A stretch of 64,000 bases of DNA, from NCBI RefSeq assembly GCF_988242995.1, contig NZ_OZ547043.1; one strand, 5' to 3'. Every line of letters begins with the position of its first letter. The stretch's first letter is position 1. Made by a program: the position numbers and the translations under genes. A model generated the notes under the pieces. The model saw only the letters and a program-made list of their open reading frames with translations. It was not told where the DNA came from and did not search any database. Positions 5,503 to 22,757 of the stretch are shown piece after piece.

Positions 5503-6165
5503 TCACTCACCCGCCAGTGCGCGCGGGAACAGCACATTATTTTCCAGGCTGATGTGCTCCATCAGGTCATCAATCAGTTCATTAATGCCGTTATACATCG
5601 CTTTCCAGGTGGTGCAGGCTTCCGGCGGCGGTGTGACGTTATTGGTAGTGTGTTTGATTACTTCCAGCAGTTCACCCGCTTCATCGTGCTCGCTTTCCAT
5701 TACGCTGATTGGCCCCATTGCCTGGCTGCCCATGCCTTGTTTGATCATCGGGAAGAGGATCTGCTCTTCTTTCATCATGTGGCTGGAAAGCTCTTCATGC
5801 AGCATAGTCAGGTATTTTGTCAGCCCTTTTGGCACGCTCGGTTTGTCGGCGTGAACGCGTTCGACTTTAGTCGCTTGCAGGATCAGCTCCGGCAGTTGCT
5901 CGCGGTGACGATCGTGGTAGCGCACGATGATATGGTCGATGATTTCTGCCAGCGGGGCGCTACGCCAGTCTTTCTCAATCGGTTGTTCAGCAAGCTTTGC
6001 CAGCTCAGCTTCAATGACCTCAACATCCAGTTCTTTACGTGCCGCCGCACGCGCCAGCGTTTGCTTACCGCCGCAGCAGTAATCCATATCATATTTACGA
6101 AACAGAGCCGAAGCGCGAGGAATAGAGAGCGCCAGTTCACCTAAAGGTTGGTCGCGATAAGCCAT
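5503..6165 (-). CDS. ytfE: Iron-sulfur cluster repair di-iron protein (RIC)
   Basis: 220-aa [36 protein letters not shown]... with a ScdA_N/hemerythrin-like architecture. Confidence 0.95.
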
Positions 6166-11878: not shown

Positions 11879-12790
11879 ATGTTACCCAGGATCAGACACA
11901 ATAATTTTATTGGTGCGGTGGAGTTATTCGTAAAATCATCGCATACAAAAACACATTCAAACAATTTTTTTAACAATATCCAGCATGCATTTAAGAAAAA
12001 AGATTGGATTTCGAATTATGATAGCCTGTTAACTTTGCGGGAGTTCTTTCGTTGCGCAACTCAGATTGATAAAAGTAGTTATCAGGTGCTTTCATCAAAA
12101 AATGAAAATGTTCACGCCATGGATAAGTTTCTTATCAGTTTCAGCATTAAAGATAACGGTGCCGAATATATAATGACATTGCGAGGCAGTGGGTTTGAAT
12201 ACGAAGAAATTCCCATAACAATAAATGAGTATAACTCATTCATGGATTTCAAAAACCGCGAGTTTCCGTTAGAACAAAACAGAAGATTGTATGCCCGGGA
12301 TATTCTGCAGAAAAAACAGTCTGACATACCGGAAAGGATTAAAGGTTATATTCGCCAGGCGATTGGTGACGTGTCTTTAGGTTATGCCTTATTGGAGGAT
12401 ATAGTAAGCAAATTAAAACGGGGTAAATTTGACCTCCAAATTCCAGGAGGTGGAATTAAAGAATGCGATGGATGGTATATTTACGAAAAAATAATTGATG
12501 ATAATTTTGCCATAGTCATAGAATCTTTGGGCTTTGCGCTTAAAATCTATGGAGGGGATGAACGTTTTCGTAATGGTTCCTCTGTTTTTTTGAAGGATGA
12601 AGATTACTCTCTTATTTATAATTTTCTGGTTAATGCAGGTTGCCAACAAGTCGAATTAGCCGAACAAGTGGATGCGATAGTAAGTGCGAATCTGGCCGCA
12701 GATAGTGATATTACCGAAGAAAAGATTTGCGAGAAATATAAATCGACCATTGAGGCGTTTAAAAAAAAGCAACTAGCGTTACCAGTATGA
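11879..12790 (+). CDS. ytfI: Uncharacterized protein YtfI
   Basis: 303-aa ORF in a strongly AT-rich segment with an AT-rich upstream region; no recognisable domain. Confidence 0.75.
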   Translation: MLPRIRHNNFIGAVELFVKSSHTKTHSNNFFNNIQHAFKKKDWISNYDSLLTLREFFRCATQIDKSSYQVLSSKNENVHAMDKFLISFSIKDNGAEYIMTLRGSGFEYEEIPITINEYNSFMDFKNREFPLEQNRRLYARDILQKKQSDIPERIKGYIRQAIGDVSLGYALLEDIVSKLKRGKFDLQIPGGGIKECDGWYIYEKIIDDNFAIVIESLGFALKIYGGDERFRNGSSVFLKDEDYSLIYNFLVNAGCQQVELAEQVDAIVSANLAADSDITEEKICEKYKSTIEAFKKKQLALPV

Positions 12791-12878
12791 GTTCGGCGTA
12801 AGAACTCAGAGGCTTAATTCCCCTATCCCATAGATAACGATAGGGGAAAATTATTTTGCAGAATTTATGTTATTGCCA

Positions 12879-13433
12879 TTATTTGAGCAACTTTTGCAGC
12901 AGGTCCATCACTTGCTGCACCTCTTCCTGTGTGAGCGCCCCGTCTTTGGCCCATTGCACGCGACCGTCTTTATCCAGCACCACTACAGCGGAACTTTCTT
13001 CATCCAGCTGCCAGGCACCGCGCGCGACGCCATTGCTATCGACAATAAACTGCGACCAGGGATAAAGCTTTTTATTACTTTCCAGACTGCTGCGCACAAA
13101 CATGCCGGAACCCGGAATTGCGTCGTCGGTGTTAACAATGGTGGTGGTCTGGTAACGATCGTGCGGTAACTTTGCTGATTTAATCGCTTCAATCAGCGTC
13201 GCGTTTTTCTCTTTTGCAGAGGTGCGACCAGCAATATGTTGCAGTACTCGCACTTTTCCCACTAACTGCGCGCTGTTCCAGGTTTTGTAGCTAAACTGAT
13301 CTTTATCAAGCACCAACTCGCCCCGATCGGTAATGCCAATCGGCGGCACTCGCTGACCGGTTTCGAACTGATGTGCGGAAGCCATCATCGGCAACAGCAG
13401 GCAGGTGAGTGCCAGAATCTTGCGTAGGGTCAT
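12879..13433 (-). CDS. ytfJ: Periplasmic protein YtfJ
   Basis: 184-aa ORF with signal peptide MTLRKILALTCLLLPMMASA. Confidence 0.9.
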   Translation of the reverse strand: MTLRKILALTCLLLPMMASAHQFETGQRVPPIGITDRGELVLDKDQFSYKTWNSAQLVGKVRVLQHIAGRTSAKEKNATLIEAIKSAKLPHDRYQTTTIVNTDDAIPGSGMFVRSSLESNKKLYPWSQFIVDSNGVARGAWQLDEESSAVVVLDKDGRVQWAKDGALTQEEVQQVMDLLQKLLK

Positions 13434-13757
13434 GGTGTTTCCTTCTTATGATATGCAGGTGATCCGACCACTTGGGTCTGAGTTTTAATCATATGTGCTA
13501 TTTATCGAATTTCCCGCAAGTGTGATGCCAGTTTGCGGTCAAGCGCACAAATCATATGAAAAATGAATGCTTATACTGAAGACCGCGCTTCGGTAAAAAG
13601 ATAATTCTGAATAATTGTAACCTTTAGGTAAAAAAAGTTATACGCGGTGGAAACATTGCCCGGATAGTCTATAGTCACTAAGCATTAAAATTTGCGCCTC
13701 ATAATAGTTGGGCCGATTGTGGCACCGCACAGGCGTAATACTCAGCAGGAGATAACA

Positions 13758-13964
13758 ATGAAAATTTTCCAACGATACAACCCACTTCAGGTGGCGAAGT
13801 ACGTAAAGATCCTGTTCCGTGGACGGTTATACATCAAGGACGTTGGCGCTTTTGAATTTGATAAGGGTAAGATTCTTATCCCAAAAGTGAAGGATAAGCT
13901 GCATTTGTCAGTGATGTCCGAAGTTAACCGTCAGGTTATGCGTCTGCAAACAGAGATGGCTTAA
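13758..13964 (+). CDS. ytfK: Small protein YtfK
   Basis: 68-aa product [34 protein letters not shown]... with a GAGA Shine-Dalgarno; internal ATG chosen within track ORF 13692-13964. Confidence 0.9.
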
Positions 13965-13991
13965 CCAAAGTGCTATGCAGTAAATAAATAT

Positions 13992-14015
13992 CCTCCGGCA
14001 TAGCCGGAGGTTTTT
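13992..14015 (+). terminator. Rho-independent terminator after ytfK
   Basis: Stem cctccggc/gccggagg with a 3-nt loop followed by TTTTT. Confidence 0.85.
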
Positions 14016-14016
14016 C

Positions 14017-14735
14017 AAATGCGCCTGTAAGGCTCTGTTACCAGCCGCGCCCTAACAGGCGCATACGATCTGACATTTGCATTCAACTTCGTTACTTACG
14101 GCCCGTAAACGGGCTGCCCGGATATGGAATCGATAACTGCTCCCCCATTTTATCCTCTTCAAGCTGGTGCTTTATGTAGTCACGTATCTTCGCCGTGTTC
14201 TTACCCACCGTATCGACATAGTACCCTCGGCACCAGAACTCCCTGTTTCTGTATTTGAATTTCAAATCCCCAAACTGCTCGTAAAGCATCAGACTGCTTT
14301 TCCCTTTCAGATATCCCATAAAGCCGGATACGCTCATTTTGGGTGGGATTTCCACAAGCATATGGATATGATCTGCGCAGCACTCTGCTTCCAGAATCCG
14401 TACGCTTTTCCACTCACACAGCTTTCTCAAAATACTGCCTATCGCCCTACGCTTCTCTCCGTAAAACGCCAGTCTTCGGTATTTCGGCGCAAAAACTATG
14501 TGATATTTACAGTTCCAGCGGGTGTGCGCTAAGCTCTTTTCGTCCCCCATTGGGACCCCCTTTTGATTTCTTGTTTGACACTTGCAGTTGCCAGACCGCA
14601 AGGTGTTTTAACAAATCAAAAGGGGTTTTAATAACTGGCTCAAAGCTGAAAGCTTTCCGGAACCCCCAGCCTAGCTGGGGGTTTTCTGTGCACAATAAGA
14701 CGGCTCCTGATTCAGGAGCCGTTGATGTTTCTGGG
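14017..14735 (-). mobile_element. IS200-like insertion sequence (IS200/IS605 family); boundaries approximate
   Basis: About 0.7 kb unit carrying a single HUH Y1 transposase, subterminal hairpins at both ends and no terminal inverted repeats, lying between ytfK and ytfL. Confidence 0.8.
14092..14550 (-). CDS. tnpA: IS200-family Y1 (HUH) transposase TnpA
   Basis: 152-aa product MGDEKSLAHTRWNCKYHIVFAPKYRR...HIHMLVEIPPK...SPFTGRK with the HUH motif; RBS sequestered in an upstream hairpin. Confidence 0.92.
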   Translation of the reverse strand: MGDEKSLAHTRWNCKYHIVFAPKYRRLAFYGEKRRAIGSILRKLCEWKSVRILEAECCADHIHMLVEIPPKMSVSGFMGYLKGKSSLMLYEQFGDLKFKYRNREFWCRGYYVDTVGKNTAKIRDYIKHQLEEDKMGEQLSIPYPGSPFTGRK

Positions 14736-14737
14736 GG

Positions 14738-16081
14738 TTACGCGACGCTTTCTTCTTTATCTTTAGCATCAGGCAATTTTGGCGAAAGGGCGGTGGCCTT
14801 GCTGTCGATTCGGGTCACCAGCAGCTGGTCGATGCGGTAGTTATCGATATCCACCACTTCAAATTTGTAGCCGGCGAATTTCACCGAATCGGTGCGTTTC
14901 GGGATCTTACGCAGCATAAACATCATAAAGCCGCCGATGGTTTCGTAGTTGCCCGACTGCGGGAACTCGTCAATATCCAGCACGCGCATGACGTCGTCAA
15001 TCGGAGTGCCGCCGTCAATCAGCCATGAGTTCTCATCACGGGCGACAATCTGCTCTTCCAGCCCCTGACCGACCAGATCGCCCATCAGCGTGGTCATCAC
15101 GTCGTTGAGGGTGATGATCCCCACTACCAGCGCGTACTCGTTCATGATCACCGCGAAGTCTTCACCTGCGGTTTTAAAACTTTCCAACGCCTCTGAAAGG
15201 GTTAACGTATCCGGCACAATCAGCGTGTTGCGAATTTGTACGCCGCTGTTCAGTGCCAGGCTTTGGTTAGCCAGCACGCGGTTCAGCAGGTCTTTAGAAT
15301 CGACATAGCCGATGATGTGGTCAATATCTTCATTACAGACGAGGAACTTAGAGTGCGGATGTTCCGCCACCTTATTCTTCAGACTTTGCTCATCTTCGTG
15401 GAGATCAAACCAAATCACGTTTTCACGCGGTGTCATTGACGACGGAACGGTACGGGATTCCAGCTCAAAGACGTTTTCAATCAGCTCGTGTTCCTGTTTA
15501 CGTAACACGCCCGCCAGCGCACCGGCTTCCACTACCGCGTAGATGTCATCAGAAGTGATGTCATCTTTACGTACCATTGGCAGTTTGAAAATACGGAAGA
15601 TCATGTTCGCCAGGCCGTTGAAGAACCACACCAGCGGGGTGCAAACGTACAGGCAGAAGCGCATCGGGTTGATGATACGCAAAGCCACTGCTTCTGGCGC
15701 AATCATACCGATGCGTTTCGGGGTTAAATCCGCAAACAGGATAAACATGCCAGTCACTAACGAGAAAGAGAGAATAAAGCTCAGTTGCTCAGAGAGTTCT
15801 GCCGACATATAGCGGGAGAACAGGCTGTGAAAAGCTGGAGAAAATGCCGCATCACCGACGATACCGCCGAGAATCGCCACTGCGTTCAGACCGATTTGGA
15901 CCACGGTAAAGAACATGCCGGGATTTTCCTGCATATTCAGAACGCGTTGGGCATTTATATTGCCTTCATCAGCCAGCAGTTTAAGTTTGATTTTGCGTGA
16001 GGCCGCAAGCGAGATCTCGGACATCGAGAAGAACGCACTTACAGCGATCAAGCAGAGTATGACTAAAATACTGTTTAACAT
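14738..16081 (-). CDS. ytfL: CNNM/CorC-family inner membrane protein (DUF21-CBS-CorC_HlyC)
   Basis: 447-aa ORF with an N-terminal membrane domain followed by CBS pair and CorC/HlyC transporter-associated domain. Confidence 0.93.
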   Translation of the reverse strand: MLNSILVILCLIAVSAFFSMSEISLAASRKIKLKLLADEGNINAQRVLNMQENPGMFFTVVQIGLNAVAILGGIVGDAAFSPAFHSLFSRYMSAELSEQLSFILSFSLVTGMFILFADLTPKRIGMIAPEAVALRIINPMRFCLYVCTPLVWFFNGLANMIFRIFKLPMVRKDDITSDDIYAVVEAGALAGVLRKQEHELIENVFELESRTVPSSMTPRENVIWFDLHEDEQSLKNKVAEHPHSKFLVCNEDIDHIIGYVDSKDLLNRVLANQSLALNSGVQIRNTLIVPDTLTLSEALESFKTAGEDFAVIMNEYALVVGIITLNDVMTTLMGDLVGQGLEEQIVARDENSWLIDGGTPIDDVMRVLDIDEFPQSGNYETIGGFMMFMLRKIPKRTDSVKFAGYKFEVVDIDNYRIDQLLVTRIDSKATALSPKLPDAKDKEESVA

Positions 16082-16257
16082 ATCTTATCCGACCTTTCAG
16101 GCCAGATCCTCGGAAGGGGAAGTTGATTAATTTGTGTGAAATACACATTGAAAGCCGATTCGAAGAAAGTGAACCGGCATTTTCAGTGGCTAGTATAGCG
16201 TAAGGTACTGTAAAGCCGCCAGAGGGTTAAAATTCAGACTGCTGATAAATGCAAAAC

Positions 16258-16365
16258 TGCCTGATGCGCTATGCCGATCAGGCCTACGCAGTCCCCACAA
16301 TATATTGATTTTGGACGATTTTGTAGGCCTGGCAAGGCGTTTACGCCGCATCCGGCATAGACAAA
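16258..16365. repeat. REP elements
   Basis: GCCTGATGCG...GATCAGGCCTAC and CGCATCCGGC palindromic units between ytfL and msrA. Confidence 0.8.
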
Positions 16366-16403
16366 TAGCACTTTATCAACAATCTACATTTGTACCCGTA
16401 ACG

Positions 16404-17042
16404 CTATGCTTCCGGCGGCAGACAGACGCCAATTCCGCCAATTCCACAGTAACCATACGGGTTTTTATGCAGATATTGCTGGTGGTCATCTTCGGCATAA
16501 TAAAACGGTGTGGCGTTCGCGATTTCCGTGGTGATGTGACGATCGTCATCGGCGGCAAGCATCGCCGCCTGAAAACGTTCCAGACTGGCGCGAGCTGCGG
16601 CATCCTGTTCTGGGGTCAGCGGATAAATCGCTGAACGATACTGCGTGCCGTGGTCATTGCCCTGACGCATTCCCTGGGCGGGATCGTGATTCTCCCAAAA
16701 TACTTGTAGCAACTGTTCATAGCTGATGACGGAAGGATCGTAAACAATGCGTACCGCTTCGGCATGACCCGTATCACCGGAGCACACTTCCCGATAAGTC
16801 GGATTTGGCGTATAGCCGCCGGTATAGCCTGCGGCGGTGCTGTAAACGCCGGGTAACTGCCAGAACAGTCGCTCCACACCCCAGAAACAACCCATCGCAA
16901 AAATGGCAATCTCCATTCCGTCAGGTACATTGGTCATTGAGTGACCGTTGACCGCATGCAGCGTGGCTACGGGCATCGGGGTGTTACGTCCAGGCAGGGC
17001 ATCGGCGGGGGAAACCAGATGCTTTTTATCAAATAAACTCAT
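16404..17042 (-). CDS. msrA: Peptide methionine sulfoxide reductase A
   Basis: 212-aa product [16 protein letters not shown]... with the GCFWG active-site motif; internal start chosen within track ORF 16404-17108. Confidence 0.95.
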
Positions 17043-17205
17043 GGTGTCGCTCTCCCGAAAATCGGTCATTGGGGTTAAGGTTGTAACAAGAGGCGTATTT
17101 GCACACAATAACCACCGTGAATAGGTCTAAAGTAAAACATAAGAAATATTTGGGGTTTAGTCTGCTTTTTAATCCATATTACTGGATTTTTGTTAAGCCG
17201 TTTAA

Positions 17206-22757
<5,552 letters not shown>

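Follow-up and report, generated by a model that had tools for sequence, protein, structure and literature searches.

An IS200-group insertion sequence between ytfK and paeA in Escherichia coli: true ends, predicted silencing module and a landing site behind a terminator

Where does the mobile DNA between ytfK and paeA (ytfL) begin and end in this Escherichia coli strain, what kind of element is it, and what has its arrival meant for the genes on either side? The window, i.e., the whole 64,000-nt stretch of contig NZ_OZ547043.1 (assembly GCF_988242995.1) analyzed here, is 99.1% identical to the best complete E. coli genome over positions 14740-21000. The presence of an IS200-family sequence at the locus is certain, far beyond chance, and the segment is almost surely an intact 712-bp insertion sequence of the IS200 group within the IS200/IS605 family, with tnpA as its only gene (Table 1). 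A sequence-only reading had already placed an IS200-like element here, and that placement is confirmed, as is the absence of the element from K-12 at this locus. The element, its family and the kind of place in which it has landed are all known already, and the exact allele is present in public assemblies; the value of the analysis lies mainly in annotation, namely corrected boundaries for one IS200 copy.

Table 1. Features of the IS200 copy and its neighborhood, in window coordinates
Feature	Position	Strand	Basis or remark
Complete IS200 element	13984..14695	-	empty-site alignment; identical ends at many other loci
tnpA, 152-aa HUH/Y1 transposase	14092..14550	-	459-nt ORF; H61, H63, Y125
Right-end subterminal hairpin CCTCCGGCATAGCCGGAGG	13992..14010		followed by TTTTT on + strand, ATATTTATTT on - strand
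Left-end hairpin AACCCCCAGC-CTA-GCTGGGGGTT	14661..14683		IS200 nt ~12-34; first helix of STnc490 match
Native bidirectional ytfK/paeA intrinsic terminator ACGGCTCCTGAtTCAGGAGCCGT	14700..14722		host DNA, insertion target
tnpA Shine-Dalgarno (SD) AAGGGGGT	14555..14562	-	lower stem of 5'UTR stem-loop
5'UTR stem-loop	14557..14625	-	IS200 nt ~69-138; within STnc490 match region
Antisense RNA art200, putative	about 14542..14631	+	published coordinates (PMC4513863) mapped onto window copy
art200 promoter, putative	14506..14535	+	-35 TTTACA 14506-14511, -10 TAAGCT 14530-14535; read by eye
ytfK, 68 aa, DUF1107	13758..13964	+	homologous-locus annotation and sequence
paeA (ytfL)	14738..16081	-	homologous-locus annotation; co-oriented with tnpA

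TnpA covers model positions 2-121 of 121 in Pfam Y1_Tnp (PF01797, E=8e-37), scores 144.3 bits against a cut-off of 55 with the NCBIfam equivalog transpos_IS200 (NF033573), and aligns with the solved IS200-family transposases 2ec2, 2f4f and 2a6m/IS608 (E=2e-19 for 2a6m, and E=2e-15 for 2xm3). Its catalytic residues are H61-I-H63, within HIHMLV, and a single tyrosine, Y125, within RDYIKHQ; the initial identification of a 152-aa HUH Y1 transposase with the HIHMLV motif is borne out by both profile matches and by these residues. Y125 corresponds to the catalytic tyrosine mutated in work on Salmonella IS200 (PMC4513863). tnpA is the one ORF of the element matched to a family, the remaining ones overlapping it or its 5'UTR, and 712 bp leave no room for tnpB, an RNA-guided nuclease gene, which places the element outside the tnpB-carrying IS605 and IS1341 groups. 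Terminal inverted repeats are absent, the ends GTGCACAG... and ...GGATATTTATT being unrelated to each other. A blastn search of the window found no second IS200 copy, and a search for IS1 ends within it gave no match.

A tyrosine transposase gene flanked by hairpins also invites the thought of a domesticated REP-associated locus (RAYT/TnpA-REP, or REPtron) that is not a mobile insertion sequence at all, and TnpA does weakly resemble the NCBIfam model REP_Tyr_transpos (E=5e-7). At 29.8 bits, that match (NF047646) stays below its cut-off of 80, while the transpos_IS200 cut-off is passed; there are no REP/BIME arrays in 13500-15300; and the unit is multi-copy, with fixed ends at many loci, whereas REPtrons are single-locus (PMC3333891). 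A domesticated RAYT is therefore hardly credible, and the locus is treated below as a mobile IS200.

The extent of the element was fixed by aligning the window to three empty sites, those of K-12 MG1655, strain H2 and O157:H7. By this alignment the insert is 13984-14695, 712 bp, although a 2-nt AA/TT ambiguity makes the registers 13982-14693, 13983-14694 and 13984-14695 equally possible. There is no target-site duplication: with a slash marking the junction, the empty site reads GCAGTAA/TAAGACGG and is merely interrupted in the window, nothing being duplicated. In its wider context the empty site is ...GCAGTAA/TAAGACGGCTCCTGATTCAGGAGCCGTT..., and the occupied site, with the element in parentheses, is ...GCAGTAA-(ATAAATATCCTCCGGCATAGCCGGAGG ... 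GGGGGTTTTCTGTGCACAA)-TAAGACGGCTCC.... All IS200 copies at other loci start TAAATATCCTCCGGCATAGCCGGAGG and finish with the same terminal sequence as the window copy, beyond which the hairpins are unrelated.

These alignments overturn the span first drawn, 14017-14735, which lies about 35-40 bp too far to the right. In that drawing the palindrome at 14702-14720 (ggctcctga-t-tcaggagcc) formed the left end of the element and the hairpin at 13992-14010 was the native ytfK terminator. The palindrome does exist at the given place, near the 5' side of tnpA, and the hairpin does resemble a ytfK terminator, but all three empty sites keep 14696-14740, palindrome included, and lack 13984-14016, and the copies elsewhere share the window copy's start and end and differ in their flanking hairpins. 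The earlier boundaries are thus refuted and retain next to no probability. The palindrome was correctly seen and wrongly assigned to the element; together with a few extra pairs it makes up the host terminator at 14700-14722, which is found in all three empty sites and is terminator-like on both strands. The hairpin at 13992-14010, missing from the empty sites, recurs at the right end in all IS200 copies compared (carB, opgD, ecnB, kdsA, fdnI, fadR, ybiJ).

The comparison with the K-12 ytfK-ytfL intergenic region, which the sequence-only reading had proposed as a check, defined the insertion point and found the element missing from K-12. It also changed the description of the neighborhood. The element had been thought to lie directly after the ytfK terminator and to abut the paeA (ytfL) stop codon at 14738-14740. 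Both statements are wrong because the native terminator sits between the IS and paeA and the hairpin next to ytfK is IS-borne: the insertion lies 19-21 nt past the ytfK stop codon, and between the element and the paeA stop codon there is a native stretch of 42 nt that holds the terminator. On the paeA strand, the landing point is 5-7 nt past the foot of the native terminator hairpin, after ...CTTATT, and tnpA points in the same direction as paeA.

The expected effects on the two neighbors differ accordingly in the layout of their 3' regions. For paeA, the native terminator hairpin is still in place, followed by six bases, CTTATT, from the start of the tail, and its termination would stay with that signal. 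ytfK is parted from the native terminator by 712 bp, and the right-end hairpin with its TTTTT lies 28 nt past the ytfK stop; judging from this arrangement, the IS right-end hairpin and T5 would now be the stopping point for ytfK transcripts. The suggestion that termination of both genes might be altered therefore does not survive as drawn, since paeA keeps its terminator and ytfK is the gene that loses the native one. The correction of the hairpin assignment is of practical use: no longer followed by its native terminator, ytfK probably relies on the IS right end, which is terminator-like on both strands (single-stranded DNA fold of -10 kcal/mol, z=-3.4) and probably terminates tnpA transcripts as well.

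At the other end, the left-end hairpin folds as single-stranded DNA with -11.7 kcal/mol (z=-3.25), and the host terminator lies only 16 nt upstream of it, the two together folding with -23.6 kcal/mol (z=-6.5). In Salmonella IS200, the corresponding segment, nt 12-34, is a bidirectional terminator that keeps outside transcription from running into tnpA (PMC4513863, PMC5435999) and stops about 85% of incoming transcripts (PMC5435999). By analogy, the left-end hairpin of the window copy would also be the hairpin bound by TnpA. The Rfam family STnc490 (RF01405), which represents the IS200 5'UTR/art200 region at the left end, matches 14560-14683 on the tnpA strand over the full model (1-124 of 124) with 146.4 bits, against a gathering score of 56. 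A match to Rfam Ysr202 at 13954-14015 was rejected as chance (29.8 bits, gathering score 315), only terminator-like ends having been aligned.

Within the 5'UTR, the SD, quoted in the same form for Salmonella IS200 (PMC4513863), is sequestered by a stem-loop with the arms ccccttttgattt (14557-14569) and aaatcaaaagggg (14613-14625). An inverted repeat hiding the tnpA ribosome-binding site had been seen by the sequence-only reading; its existence stands, its coordinates (14552-14619) do not. RNA folding, another check proposed at that stage, finds the stem-loop stable (-46.6 kcal/mol, z=-4.6, with 0 of 200 shuffles as good). The published anatomy of IS200 places the terminator at nt 12-34, the stem-loop at nt 69-138 and the 5' ends of art200 at nt 153/154 (PMC4513863, PMC5435999), and the position of the putative art200 promoter agrees with these 5' ends and with the barely recognizable -10 element described there (PMC4513863). 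A simple scan of 13650-14850 for sigma-70-like promoters returned no site, which is consistent with the weak promoters published but lends no support to the promoters of tnpA and art200. The whole IS200-specific left-end module (terminator hairpin, SD-hiding stem-loop and art200/STnc490 region) can thus be recognized from the sequence, with expression of art200 predicted.

If the window copy follows the Salmonella IS200 model, four layers of control should keep it almost unexpressed. The host terminator and the left-end hairpin would stop read-through from outside; the tnpA promoter, near nt 40, would be weak; the SD would be hidden in the 5'UTR stem-loop; and the antisense RNA art200 would block ribosome binding. 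Movement, on the family paradigm, would be single-strand peel-and-paste transposition by the HUH/Y1 TnpA. The transposase would recognize the subterminal hairpins at 14661-14683 (left end) and 13992-14010 (right end), and TnpA dimers would cut out the tnpA-sense strand in circular form for insertion into single-stranded DNA, a route that would leave the element without inverted terminal repeats and its target unduplicated.

The distribution of the element was surveyed by megablast against 5,426 complete E. coli genomes, with 13700-15100 as the query. The flanks are found in 5,425 genomes and the whole query, i.e., an IS at ytfK-paeA, in only two, O158:H23 CFIAFB20140388 and VTB97379v, both of which carry the IS200C subfamily; in 5,423 genomes the site is without an IS. 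The element alone matches 2,642 of the 5,426 genomes (median 2 places, maximum 35). Since 2,642 genomes have the element and two have it here, IS200 is common in E. coli and rare only at the ytfK-paeA site. K-12 MG1655 is recorded at one place only, the flanks, and is therefore without IS200 at megablast sensitivity; the initial proposal that K-12 MG1655 has no IS200 copy, and that the element marks a non-K-12 strain, is borne out at that sensitivity. As a strain marker it is rare, the site being occupied in 2 of 5,426 complete genomes and the exact allele present in a few public assemblies.

The element is plainly mobile. A unit of 711-712 bp with constant ends recurs in the 3' regions of carB, opgD, ecnB, kdsA, fdnI, fadR, ybiJ, ccmH, purL and recA, giving more than 10 E. 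coli loci, to which 34 loci in other Enterobacterales are added below. The window copy has 2 mismatches in 711 positions with copies of a second subfamily (TnpA WP_000502112.1; L010-L012), sited at yddM-fdnI, ycgB-fadR and hcxB-ybiE, and 29-32 in 711, about 4%, with IS200C copies (TnpA WP_000526135.1). The two IS200C copies at ytfK-paeA itself show 31-32 differences in 711 from the window copy, and at the right junction they are shorter by one base. For both subfamilies, identity with copies at other loci is at least 99%.

Presence and absence alone do not give the direction of change. Excision of Y1 elements is precise, and in principle it might have produced the empty sites, the segment then being ancestral at the locus and precisely deleted in K-12 and most other strains. 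Such a history is very improbable: the site is empty in 5,423 of 5,426 complete genomes; the three occupied sites hold two subfamilies, 29-32/711 apart, with right junctions that differ by one base; and each subfamily has its near-identical relatives elsewhere, all of which makes independent insertions into a preferred target far more parsimonious. The occupancy of one nucleotide position by two subfamilies, as read from the alignments, argues for independent hits on a preferred target, with replacement by recombination between IS copies as an alternative that may also account for it.

Both nucleotides that distinguish the window copy from its closest relatives fall into one codon, which gives R123 in the window and Q123 in the other E. 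coli copies compared; the protein comparison was made with the L010 copy, and the Q codon of IS200C was deduced from the nucleotide differences. At least five other loci encode exactly this R123 protein, among them ccmH-narP, ybiJ-hcxB, purL-narP and a place downstream of recA, and because the same protein occurs at several loci, the R123 variant has moved. It is also encoded at ytfK-paeA in Logan ERR9565142 and GCA_051713105.1, both 100% identical to the window over 12592-16050 (3.5 kb); two assemblies being identical at the locus, the allele is already in public data.

These data bear on the possibility that the window copy, structurally intact, is effectively an immobile passenger, silenced or impaired by the Q123R change, that leaves its neighbors unaffected. 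IS200 is almost dormant, with four levels of repression (PMC4513863, PMC5435999); R123 lies close to the catalytic tyrosine, two residues before Y125; and both neighboring genes keep or gain a terminator. Against an impaired transposase stand the intact ORF and ends and the occurrence of the exact R123 protein at several loci in public assemblies, which indicates that the variant has transposed. A silent passenger of this kind is possible, if rather unlikely, and is compatible with the main explanation, an intact IS200 whose expression is expected to be almost off.

What the many loci share is the place of landing. In the first ten E. coli copies the left end lies 3-5 nt past the GC-rich hairpin of a co-oriented upstream gene in all ten cases, and the gene upstream of the left end is co-oriented at every annotated E. 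coli site. A cross-species scan for the left-end pattern GCTGGGGGTTTTCTNTGCAC, in which a single genome stood for each species, yielded 34 loci, in Citrobacter, Kluyvera, Brenneria, Mangrovibacter, Pluralibacter, Entomohabitans, Kosakonia, Raoultella, Yersinia pekkanenii, Tatumella and MAGs. On visual inspection, a GC-rich hairpin and a T-run ending ...TT/GTGCAC are present in 38 of the 40 distinct left-end flanks (the exceptions are L019 and L020). An automatic criterion accepts 34 of 41 left-end flanks and 68 of 925 random 45-mers drawn as a control from the same loci. The three further sites at ccmH, purL and recA fit as well (3/3). The consensus immediately before the element is TTTTNTT, to which the window target, CTTATT after the paeA terminator hairpin, is a loose fit; it resembles the IS right terminus, ...TTTATT.

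How TnpA might come to choose such sites is suggested by the element's own ends. A-runs precede the feet of both hairpins, in CAGAAAA-CCCCC at the left end and in TTGAAAAA-CCTCC at the right end. In IS608, four bases 5' of each hairpin foot are said to pair with the cleavage or target sequence. By this analogy, the A-runs 5' of the hairpin feet would act as guides that choose T-run targets, and a target hairpin followed by Ts would look to TnpA like the element's own right end, a hairpin followed by ATATTTATT. Across more than 10 enterobacterial genera, about 40 of 42 independent sites have the element behind a terminator hairpin and T-run, in a single orientation. Whether this pattern reflects mechanistic target recognition beyond the mere survival of harmless insertions is evenly balanced in our judgment. 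If it does, the ytfK/paeA terminator would be a hot spot used repeatedly, two IS200 subfamilies having reached it independently.

For IS608 and ISDra2, a preference for the lagging-strand template has been reported. The GC skew of the flanks at 25 IS200 loci divides them 15 to 10 by replication strand, which as a weak test gives no clear bias; in the window, the tnpA-sense strand has a negative GC skew, unlike the IS608/ISDra2 preference, and this too is a weak test.

The terminator preference itself has been reported already, and its mechanism and strictness alone would be new. Terminator-like stem-loops reportedly lie at 8 of 14 IS1541 sites and are said to have been proposed as hot spots. 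Among insertion sequences, terminator-like sequences upstream of the element are most enriched for IS200/IS605 (2025/26 preprint, bioRxiv 10.1101/2025.07.22.666184), and this aggregate preprint was the only work found in a literature search on IS200 target preference. The set of loci compared is a clean illustration of the known tendency of the IS200 group to land almost always behind intrinsic terminators and co-oriented with the gene they serve, a tendency that can be used for predicting IS200 sites and for designing a biochemical test of target recognition.

One of the nearest known systems is IS200 of Salmonella enterica (Lam and Roth, 1983; Ellis, Trussler and Haniford, 2015, PMC4513863), with which the window copy shares a length of about 707-712 bp, a single 152-aa tnpA with the catalytic Y125, a left-end terminator hairpin at nt ~12-34, a stem-loop at nt ~69-138 that buries the SD AAGGGGGU, and a full-length art200/STnc490 region (146 bits); the window copy differs in residing in E. 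coli and in being 712 bp long. The E. coli relatives, IS200C and the second subfamily, have the same length, ends and organization. IS200C is an NCBI annotation name, relatives being labeled by NCBI either "IS200C family" or "IS200/IS605 family transposase"; from IS200C the window copy is about 4% diverged and has R123 instead of Q123. IS1541 of Yersinia pestis and Yersinia pseudotuberculosis is likewise an IS200-group element, reportedly often found next to terminator-like stem-loops, the same pattern as for IS200 here, but it belongs to another genus and has a higher copy number, and the terminator-adjacent share of the sites here, about 85-95%, is higher than the 8 of 14 reportedly seen for IS1541. 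IS608 (Helicobacter pylori) and ISDra2 (Deinococcus) have a homologous Y1 HUH TnpA and subterminal hairpins, are without inverted repeats and target duplications, and insert 3' of a specific short sequence. By contrast, both carry tnpB and target TTAC or TTGAT, whereas the window element is without tnpB and its target is a T-run (TTTTNTT) after a hairpin.

Complete E. coli genomes sample the lineage from which the window derives only sparsely: across 5,426 such genomes in RefSeq, the top match to positions 14740-21000 is only 99.1%, and just four genomes reach at least 99% identity to this segment. Over 12592-16050 the window is matched at 100% identity by two assemblies of draft or Logan type, GCA_051713105.1 and ERR9565142. 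An IS1 end was sought in the window and none was found.

The ytfK 3'UTR displays a small tandem-copy polymorphism of a 17-bp unit, AAAGTGCTATGCAGTAA, located after the ytfK stop codon and ahead of the shared terminator; when the window is compared at this site with L002 (K-12), L003 (strain H2), L004 (O157:H7) and L047, the window and strain H2 carry one copy of the unit, K-12 and VTB97379v (an E. coli genome with IS200C at the same site) two, and O157:H7 three. Within tnpA, two neighbouring base changes replace CAG with CGT; as a result the TnpA of the window carries R123, two residues ahead of the catalytic Y125, in place of the Q123 found in the other E. coli IS200 copies that were compared. 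An identical R123 TnpA is also encoded at several distinct loci in public assemblies.

Positions of the features discussed (window coordinates unless a locus is named)
Feature	Sequence	Position	Strand
17-bp unit of the ytfK 3'UTR	window	13968-13983	
CAG to CGT change	window	14182-14184	tnpA strand
Rfam STnc490 match	window	14560-14683	minus
Left-end flank without clear terminator hairpin and T-run	L019, Brenneria roseae		
Left-end flank without clear terminator hairpin and T-run	L020, MAG labelled Neglectibacter	5520-5539	

A clear terminator hairpin with a T-run is absent from only two left-end flanks (L019 and L020), and the latter, which places an enterobacterial IS200 left end in a MAG labelled as Clostridia, may reflect contamination during binning. 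Two further IS200 loci, L049 and L052, from two assemblies, have a common right-end flank on the narP side and unlike left-end flanks, the terminator of ccmH at one locus and that of purL at the other, which suggests that one of these genomes was rearranged by recombination between two IS200 copies.

A replication-strand bias has been reported for IS608/ISDra2. No clear bias of this kind is seen from flank GC skew, a weak test, at the 25 loci (drawn from the IS200 loci L005-L046 and the window) that have 4 kb or more of flanking sequence: read on the tnpA-sense strand, the skew is positive at 15 and negative at 10, and is negative in the window flanks.

The match to STnc490, the Rfam family of the IS200 left end, lies on the tnpA-sense strand and takes in the left-end terminator hairpin, which precedes the tnpA start site; STnc490/art200 is described as antisense to the tnpA 5'UTR (PMC4513863). 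The mapped RNA and the Rfam STnc490 model may disagree in strand or extent.
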